A stretch of 64,000 bases of DNA from Squalus acanthias. Taxonomy: Eukaryota. The DNA lies in the NCBI GenBank assembly GCA_030390025.1, contig CM059439.1, positions 68,572,001-68,636,000 on the forward strand, in the 5' to 3' direction. Positions 40,526 to 41,206 of this stretch are shown piece by piece. The notes below the pieces were generated by a model, which saw only the letters and a program-made list of their open reading frames with translations, had not been told where the DNA came from and did no database searches. The stretch's first letter is position 1. Each line of letters opens with the position of its first letter. Position numbers and translations under genes: made by a program.

Positions 40526-40741
40526 TCAGATAAGTCTCTCCACCTGCGGTGGGTGCACCATGTTCCACATCTCCACCCGCGATCCCTCCTTCTCCTGCCG
40601 GCTTGGGCTGTACGCCCCGTGCGTTGCTCTTTTATTCAGGGTCACAACGGAGGCAGTGAGGACTAGAAAGAAAATTAGCAACAACGCCACGGTGACCAAC
40701 CCAATATAGAGCAGAATCTCTGAGGTCCAGGCTTCCACATC
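40526..40741 (-). CDS. CRB1: CRB1 canonical terminal exon: TM helix + 37-aa tail ([71 protein letters not shown])
   Basis: Acceptor cttgtcggcag, phase 0, 216 nt to TGA. [25 protein letters not shown] is the CRB1-type tail. Confidence 0.95.
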
Positions 40742-40984
40742 CTGCCGACAAGAGTCAAAACGGTTAAACAGTTTAAAGATAACCCACACAGGGTTAGCTT
40801 TGAAGCTGCCGTGGTTTAAAGAAAACACACGTGCACACGCACACACTTTGAGTTGCACAGCTTCGTGACGTTTCTCTTCCTCCTAACTTGTTGAGTAACA
40901 CGGGGAATACCTGGGATCTGTTGACTTCTTCTACTCCTTCCACCATAACACCCCAAGTCTTGTGCGTCCCAGAGCCTGAACATA

Positions 40985-41206
40985 TCAGATAAGGCGCTCT
41001 TCTGGCGGTAGTTTAAGGGTATTGTTCATTTCCATCCGAGATCCAGTCTGCTCCTGGTTGCTTGGGCTGTAGTTCCCTTCAGTCTGACGTTTCTCACGCA
41101 GTTTTAGAATTAGAAAAGTCAGAATGATAGCTAGAACTATCACCCCACCAATCACACAGGGAGCCACAATGGCTGCTATGTTTACTTTGTTTGGTGGTGG
41201 ATTTGT
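40985..41206 (-). CDS. Nested CRB3-like terminal exon: TM + 37-aa Crumbs tail ([73 protein letters not shown])
   Basis: attattttcacag acceptor, phase 0, open to [13 protein letters not shown] and [10 protein letters not shown] match CRB3; FERM-binding Y10/P12/E16 and PDZ-binding ERLI are intact. Confidence 0.92.

Follow-up and report, generated by a model that had tools for sequence, protein, structure and literature searches.

Described Crumbs isoforms and the 3' end of a shark CRB1 gene

The available text of published work on Crumbs genes describes CRB1-A, CRB1-B and CRB1-C, CRB3A and CRB3B, and five crumbs genes in zebrafish. The cytoplasmic tail of CRB3 is altered by splicing to end in ERLI (CRB3A) or CLPI (CRB3B); in CRB3B only the last 23 aa are replaced, ERLI is lost and importin-beta binding is gained (Fan et al. 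2007, PMC2064851, in the accessible part of the paper). CRB1-B combines an alternative promoter with an alternative C-terminus in CRB1 and is without FERM and PDZ motifs, and the accessible part of the paper (Ray et al. 2020, PMC7335077) does not show a second exon encoding a transmembrane (TM) segment and ERLI.

The window analysed here, 64,000 nucleotides of the Squalus acanthias genome (locus C15, 68572001-68636000), contains the 3' end of a CRB1 gene that resembles each of these systems in part. Like canonical CRB1-A, it has an ectodomain of EGF and laminin-G (LamG) domains and a terminal exon, T2, that encodes a TM segment and a 37-aa tail with ERLI. As in CRB1-B, an alternative promoter (here predicted) and an alternative C-terminus are found within CRB1, and T0, the read-through tail, ends in a sequence that matches the intracellular peptide of mouse CRB1-B as given in the accessible part of bioRxiv 10.64898/2026.08.05.743134. 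In contrast to CRB1-B as described, T0 occurs in this shark at the CRB2 locus as well, a point that the accessible part of PMC7335077 does not mention. Unlike human CRB1, whose variant table (PMC5380682, as far as accessible) contains neither a second TM+ERLI exon nor a nested short unit, the shark gene has both. The nested unit is like CRB3A in having a signal peptide, a short glycosylated stalk, a TM segment and EERLI (118 aa, compared with 120 aa for human CRB3A in the text available); unlike CRB3A, it lies inside CRB1 and its last exon is common to long CRB1, a free-standing CRB3 being located on C22. As in CRB3A and CRB3B, splicing would alter a Crumbs tail, and unlike in CRB3B, the shark swap would exchange the entire TM segment and tail between duplicated exons, with ERLI in both. 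The features are as follows.

63807-63933, minus strand: last CRB1 EGF exon of the long ectodomain, with a phase-2 acceptor and a phase-0 GT donor (Pfam EGF, E 7.6e-10)
63696-63806, minus strand: T0, a CRB1-B-type tail of 36 aa made by read-through of the EGF exon, with a weakly hydrophobic segment and without ERLI
50825-50921, minus strand: signal-peptide exon, ATG at 50906, 27 codons, phase-1 donor after 50825
42521-42573, minus strand: stalk exon, 53 nt, rich in S, T, N and P, one N-glycosylation sequon, phase-1 acceptor and phase-0 GT donor
41206-40985, minus strand: T1, the proximal TM and 37-aa tail exon, CRB2/CRB3 type, ending in EERLI; 222 nt, 73 aa plus stop, phase-0 acceptor (...TTTTCACAG)
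40742-40984, minus strand: T1-T2 spacer, 243 nt, which would be 3' UTR of T1 transcripts and contains the T2 acceptor region
40741-40526, minus strand: T2, the distal TM and 37-aa tail exon, CRB1 type, with an EMW motif and ending in VERLI; 216 nt, 71 aa plus stop, phase-0 acceptor (...TGTCGGCAG)
40106-40339, minus strand: first candidate poly(A) hexamers 3' of T2 (ATTAAA at 40339, AATAAA at 40111)

An EGF and LamG ectodomain, as expected of the Crumbs family, is encoded upstream of T1 and T2 on the same strand; its LamG and EGF exons match shark CRB1 at 82%, and the closest named proteins of the window are shark CRB1 (92-97%). Compared with macaque and coelacanth CRB1, the exon of the window gave 55-56% and that of the C14 locus 44-45%. 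T1 and T2 each encode a hydrophobic helix (best 19-aa hydropathy 2.89 for T1 and 3.04 for T2), a 37-aa tail and ERLI followed by a stop, and their arrangement in tandem, both in phase 0 and with 47% identity over 59 aa, identifies them as homologous tandem exons. Both match the Drosophila Crumbs sequence of PDB 4WSI/4YL8 (E 2e-9 for T1, 6e-7 for T2) and, by ungapped count, 62-71 of the 73 aa of T1 are identical to those of 13 cartilaginous-fish orthologues and 55-65 of the 71 aa of T2 to those of seven; the pair is therefore not a product of chance. The preliminary description had reported two intact TM+ERLI exons, 243 nt apart (T1 stop to T2 acceptor), with phase-0 acceptors, and phase-0 donors on both the EGF exon (63807) and the stalk exon (42521), and the exon coordinates and phases bear this out; it had left out the signal-peptide exon (ATG 50906) and the T0 tail (63806-63696). 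No GT was seen by eye at the position in T1 matching an internal donor for a CRB3B-like hybrid tail.

An AATAAA lies at 63675, 21 nt past the T0 stop. AATAAA and ATTAAA are absent from the 243-nt spacer between T1 and T2, where two TTTAAA were the only related hexamers. The two exons do not have the make-up of alternative last exons with separate poly(A) sites, as there is no canonical signal between them, and this points to alternative 3' splice sites, 465 nt apart, with a common 3' end. We infer that the hexamers at 40339 and 40111 are in use and are common to T1 and T2 mRNAs.

The signal-peptide and stalk exons are located inside the 22.6-kb last intron of CRB1, in which a splice-site scan found the stalk exon as the sole stalk candidate. 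The signal exon is 61% identical to the N-terminus of a Hemiscyllium "crumbs 3-like" protein (record P0024), and candidate acceptors at 50921 and 50923 before its ATG imply an upstream non-coding exon; an ORF at 42977 had been considered as the signal exon and was dropped once 50906 matched. A CpG profile did not reveal the promoter of the nested unit. With a signal peptide, a short EGF-free stalk, a TM segment and an ERLI tail in 118 aa, the unit has the composition of CRB3, and orthologous 118-aa models carry names such as "crumbs homolog 3-like/3a". A CRB3 orthologue would be expected at a free-standing locus without a long ectodomain; this unit lies within CRB1, and a stand-alone CRB3 is present on C22. 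Judged from sequence, the nested unit is a paralogue of CRB3 that would work like it.

The acceptor at 50921, located 15 nt before the signal ATG, keeps the frame of the EGF donor, such that a fusion of ectodomain, signal, stalk and T1 is possible, and this fusion appears in ab initio models (records P0027 and P0100); neighbouring acceptors yield truncated, possibly secreted ends. The window also contains a simple tandem-repeat block (12250-13230) and several fragments of a single LINE-like reverse-transcriptase tail (8828-9259, 22863-23564, 46916-48181, 48941-49285 and 58546-58938; one was checked and had no Pfam match).

Predicted products of the competing acceptors

The best explanation of these exons, and a probable one, is a single gene with two promoters and three C-termini, combined with an exon duplication that preceded the CRB1/CRB2 split. 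In such a gene, the phase-0 EGF donor can be read through, giving T0, or spliced to one of two competing acceptors, T1 or T2, each of which encodes a helix that spans the membrane, together with a FERM motif and ERLI. The long pre-mRNA would thus choose between read-through, T1 and T2, with the signal and stalk acceptors skipped (the stalk exon shifts the frame), while the signal and stalk exons would give rise to a CRB3-like protein of 118 aa with T1 as its last part, the short unit using the nearest acceptor, 1.3 kb off. The stop codon of T1 would make T1 and T2 mutually exclusive in the protein, and T1 mRNAs would include T2 as 3' UTR and so would evade nonsense decay. All four combinations, i.e., EGF+T1, EGF+T2, signal+stalk+T1 (118 aa) and signal+stalk+T2 (116 aa), have an open frame up to the final stop codon; EGF joined to the stalk exon is out of frame.

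Evidence for isoforms comes from predicted public gene models of relatives, drawn from five clusters (32 of 36 members listed) and later look-ups; the read support of these models is not visible. RefSeq X-isoforms are usually supported by RNA-seq alignments. The long ectodomain is joined to T1 in models of seven shark species and to T2 in those of seven cartilaginous fishes, both forms being modelled in Cetorhinus, Scyliorhinus canicula, Chiloscyllium plagiosum and C. punctatum. Long+T1 is also found beside long+T2 at CRB1 in four bony vertebrates, namely the bichirs Polypterus and Erpetoichthys, gar (a UniRef model) and the caecilian Rhinatrema, and models join the EGF donor to both tail exons in eight species at CRB1 and in one at CRB2. 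Long+T0 is modelled in Mustelus (record P0011). Short+T1 (112-121 aa) is modelled in eight cartilaginous fishes, and in three of these (Hemiscyllium, Mustelus and Hypanus) its record and CRB1 are on equally long contigs. Classification of 62 cartilaginous-fish records gave 17 long+T1, eight long+T2, one long+T0, nine long with no tail, 25 short+T1 (among them true CRB3), one mid-length+T1 and one short T2, the last being a lone exon of the CRB2 locus whose leader derives from an intron. In a search with T2, the best 120 of 238 matches all had a T2-type tail and nearly all were named CRB1; none of these 120 was named CRB2. Record P0230 has a tail of the CRB2-locus T2 type unlike those of sharks, so CRB2-T2 may survive in another lineage.

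Two overlapping genes could also be present without a functional swap, with CRB1 using T2, the nested CRB3-like gene using T1, and long+T1 representing leakage to the first suitable acceptor or a prediction artefact. In some shark models, the EGF exon is indeed spliced to the signal exon, which truncates the protein (records P0012, P0013, P0025 and P0028), and these unproductive joins suggest that splicing noise may account for some of the modelled joins; moreover, the short unit alone could hold T1 under selection in sharks. In bony vertebrates, CRB1-T1 is fast-evolving and forms long branches (bichir, gar and caecilian), and T1 has diverged on CRB1 in the X1 models of Polypterus and Erpetoichthys (P0376/P0383), the gar UniRef model and caecilian X1 and X3, which also suits the absence of a swap. 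Against this, long+T1 recurs across the seven sharks and four bony vertebrates above, and at C14 both tail exons are intact although no stalk candidate was found in the last intron by a scan that recovered both positive controls, which suggests that two tails serve one ectodomain there. The absence of a functional swap is therefore considered unlikely. At the level of gene models, joins are not confined to 63807 to 40741 and 42521 to 41206, the pattern under which the preliminary description would have given up swapping, as long+T1 is modelled; its claim that the long ectodomain can take either tail agrees with the models of the four sharks, two bichirs, gar and caecilian.

The preliminary description had further proposed four products, and a full four-way swap would add the short stalk joined to the CRB1-type tail. 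This join is in frame, and no more than 1.8 kb separates the stalk donor from the T2 acceptor. All four products can be encoded and three have model support, but signal+stalk+T2 was found in none of the 62 classified records, and none of 67 matches in a short-protein search ended in T2. A rare model could escape, since coverage consisted of cluster representatives and members of 25 clusters (15 of 19 listed in one); even so, the fourth product appears quite improbable.

Ab initio or Ensembl-type models of tarpon, eel and mudskipper (P0320, P0226 and P0283) have a T1-like segment that runs into T2; the mudskipper model is named "Crumbs homolog 3b", a hint that some teleost crb3b annotations may be at the crb1 locus.

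The CRB2 and CRB3 loci and the age of the exon pair

A search of the same genome with T1 gave five matches at three loci (C15, C14 and C22). We take C14 to be CRB2 and C22 to be CRB3, labels that derive in part from best matches. DENN-domain exons lie tail-to-tail with all three Crumbs loci (on C15 at 68.51-68.52 Mb, plus strand), and presumably belong to DENND1-type genes (DENND1A/B/C). Probable last exons of the convergent gene are found in the window at 25575-26777 on the plus strand, where a 182-aa ORF, presumably similar to DENND1B, has no Pfam match; 25575-25679 matches the C22 paralogue at 63%. Full-length matches of the LamG exon to the genome were limited to two of 32.

At C14, a T1-type exon (79574118-339) is followed by a T2-type exon (79575385-606), both intact and in phase 0 and in the same order as at CRB1; the gap between them is 1045 nt and contains one ATTAAA. 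The locus also has a long ectodomain and a CRB1-B-type read-through tail (L007:4917-5033), 69% identical over 36 aa to that of CRB1 and intact behind the last EGF exon, as it is at CRB1, which suggests that a "CRB2-B" may exist in sharks. Models of the C14 orthologue in Heterodontus (82-89% identical to the C14 exons), named "crumbs 1-like" in RefSeq, are long+T1 (X1) and long+T2 (X2). No short unit was detected at CRB2: tblastn with nine N-termini gave only noise, and the splice-site scan of the 14.2-kb intron found no stalk candidate and one weak signal candidate, although a diverged unit could escape a scan that recovered both the window and the C22 exons and gave one false signal candidate in the window. 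At C22, CRB3 consists of a signal, a stalk and a T1 exon, whose coding phases agree with those of the nested CRB1 unit, and no relic of an ectodomain, T0 or T2 was found within 110 kb; two stray matches near it (E 0.013 and 0.046) were rejected as relics.

In a tree of 41 rows and 66 columns covering the TM segment and tail, 19 T1-type rows were on one side of a branch (100/97, starred), 13 T2-type rows grouped together (99/98, starred), and CRB1-T1 grouped with CRB3 (98/93, starred). AU tests rejected a clade of CRB1-locus tails (p 0.0008) and a clade of CRB2-locus tails (p 0.019), and marginally rejected CRB3 with CRB2-T1 (p 0.049). A tail-only tree (28 rows, 37 columns), from which 13 rows including the two longest branches were dropped, had the same shape (T2 87/89, T1 88/89, both unstarred), with Polypterus T1 unplaced. 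The outgroup, nine proteins of 1.9-2.5 kaa (eight in the tail-only tree) that are assumed to be invertebrate, was not monophyletic in either tree, and there was no lamprey or hagfish row. The exons thus group by type and not by locus, which indicates that the T1/T2 duplication predates the CRB1/CRB2 split.

A secondary origin, through insertion of a CRB3 copy into the CRB1 intron or last-exon duplication at each locus with conversion or convergence, is very unlikely: T1 is closer to C22 CRB3 (40 of 64 aa identical) than to C14 T1 (33 of 64), short alignments can mislead and the rejection of CRB3 with CRB2-T1 is marginal, but CRB1 and CRB2 share the T1-then-T2 order and the type of read-through tail, per-locus clades are rejected, CRB3 lies in paralogous DENN-linked synteny, and about half of the codons at residues shared by T1 and CRB3 differ (21 of 40), as between other paralogue pairs (17 of 32 and 20 of 31), which argues against recent conversion.

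Under the preferred reading of one gene with three C-termini, the tandem TM+tail duplication most likely predates 1R, the first genome doubling of vertebrates. Loss that was biased towards one of the 2R subgenomes has been described (PMC7269912 and PMC8302630, in the text available), and from the fit of this pattern and of the tree we infer that CRB1 and CRB2 split at 1R and that CRB1 and CRB3 are a 2R pair, a pairing that the cited text does not give for these chromosomes. The DENND1 paralogues gave no 1R/2R order, having too few exons and lacking an outgroup. A placement of chicken chromosome 28 under CLGM was discarded, as the accessible paper text gives CLGC.

Tail motifs and a proposed partitioning of Crumbs isoforms

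Both tails follow a single TM segment and have a FERM motif (Y10, P12 and E16; numbering after the accessible text of PMC3564977) and a terminal ERLI; 21 of 37 residues are identical, including G8, Y10, P12, E16 and ERLI, and the differences are in the TM sequence and mid-tail (EMN..LKLPPE in T1 vs EMW..HPPQV in T2). For the isolated PALS1 PDZ domain, binding is confined to the last four residues (PMC4356366, in the part available), and a review, as far as accessible, describes the PALS1 PDZ-SH3-GK tandem and moesin as contacting more of the tail. The suggestion that a tail swap could change partners is therefore weak for sharks: the FERM motif and ERLI are kept in both tails, and PALS1 PDZ affinity set by the last four residues implies the same partner classes. 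Most likely, the swap would tune TM identity, trafficking or affinity, and in sharks it probably has a modest effect on function. Thr9 of the G-T-Y motif, an aPKC site, is absent from both CRB1 tails here (Asn in T1, Ala in T2) and kept in the C14 and C22 tails.

In the caecilian (Rhinatrema, P0396/P0397), T1 has Phe at position 10 and a PDZ motif of EHLI, and gar (P0389) also has Phe at position 10. According to the accessible text of the respective papers, Y10 to F rescues in the fly (PMC3564977), and replacement of R by A in ERLI weakens PALS1 binding about six-fold, whereas PAR6 tolerates other residues there (PMC4356366). A real shift of partners is thus conceivable in the caecilian lineage, where EHLI could favour PAR6 over PALS1.

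The pieces of this locus are already in automatic annotation, and they could mislead: in sharks, bichirs and caecilians, many RefSeq records labelled "CRB1 isoform X1" end in a tail of the CRB2/3 type, and some records labelled "crumbs 3a/3-like" represent the nested unit and not CRB3. As a general concept, ancestral splice forms can be partitioned among genome-duplication paralogues, each duplicate keeping a subset. By this concept, ancestral isoforms would have been split among the Crumbs duplicates, with sharks keeping the unpartitioned state. In the literature searched (mostly open papers, text only, including the accessible text of PMC11129452, PMC4359734, PMC8053990, PMC10972751, PMC6928914 and PMC5676222), we found no application of this concept to vertebrate Crumbs, and neither a vertebrate crumbs gene with a pair of ERLI exons nor a nested unit resembling CRB3 was described. 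The interpretation as an ancestral gene with several tails, later divided between CRB1, CRB2 and CRB3, appears to be undescribed.

Both T1 and T2 would have been retained by sharks at the CRB1 and CRB2 loci. In mammals, T2 (and T0) would have been retained by CRB1, T1 by CRB2 and the short unit by CRB3, a sister of the CRB1 locus in which nothing but signal, stalk and T1 survived. On this reading, each of the three mammalian Crumbs genes would be a fixed remnant of the splice forms of one ancestral gene. With moderate confidence in the reading as a whole, the ancestral vertebrate would have had a crumbs gene that made T0, T1 and T2, with a short form on the CRB1/3 branch; mammalian CRB1, CRB2 and CRB3 would be frozen splice forms; sharks would switch tails by tissue at CRB1 and CRB2; and amphibians and early ray-finned fish would show the tail switch diverging. 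If so, the tails of mammalian CRB1 and CRB2 are not the same exon, their differences being older than the genes themselves, and CRB3 would have a concrete origin as a former internal-promoter isoform. Sharks would then represent a natural experiment in which one ectodomain is combined with either tail, which bears on the reasons for which CRB2 or CRB1-B may or may not stand in for CRB1 in retinal disease.
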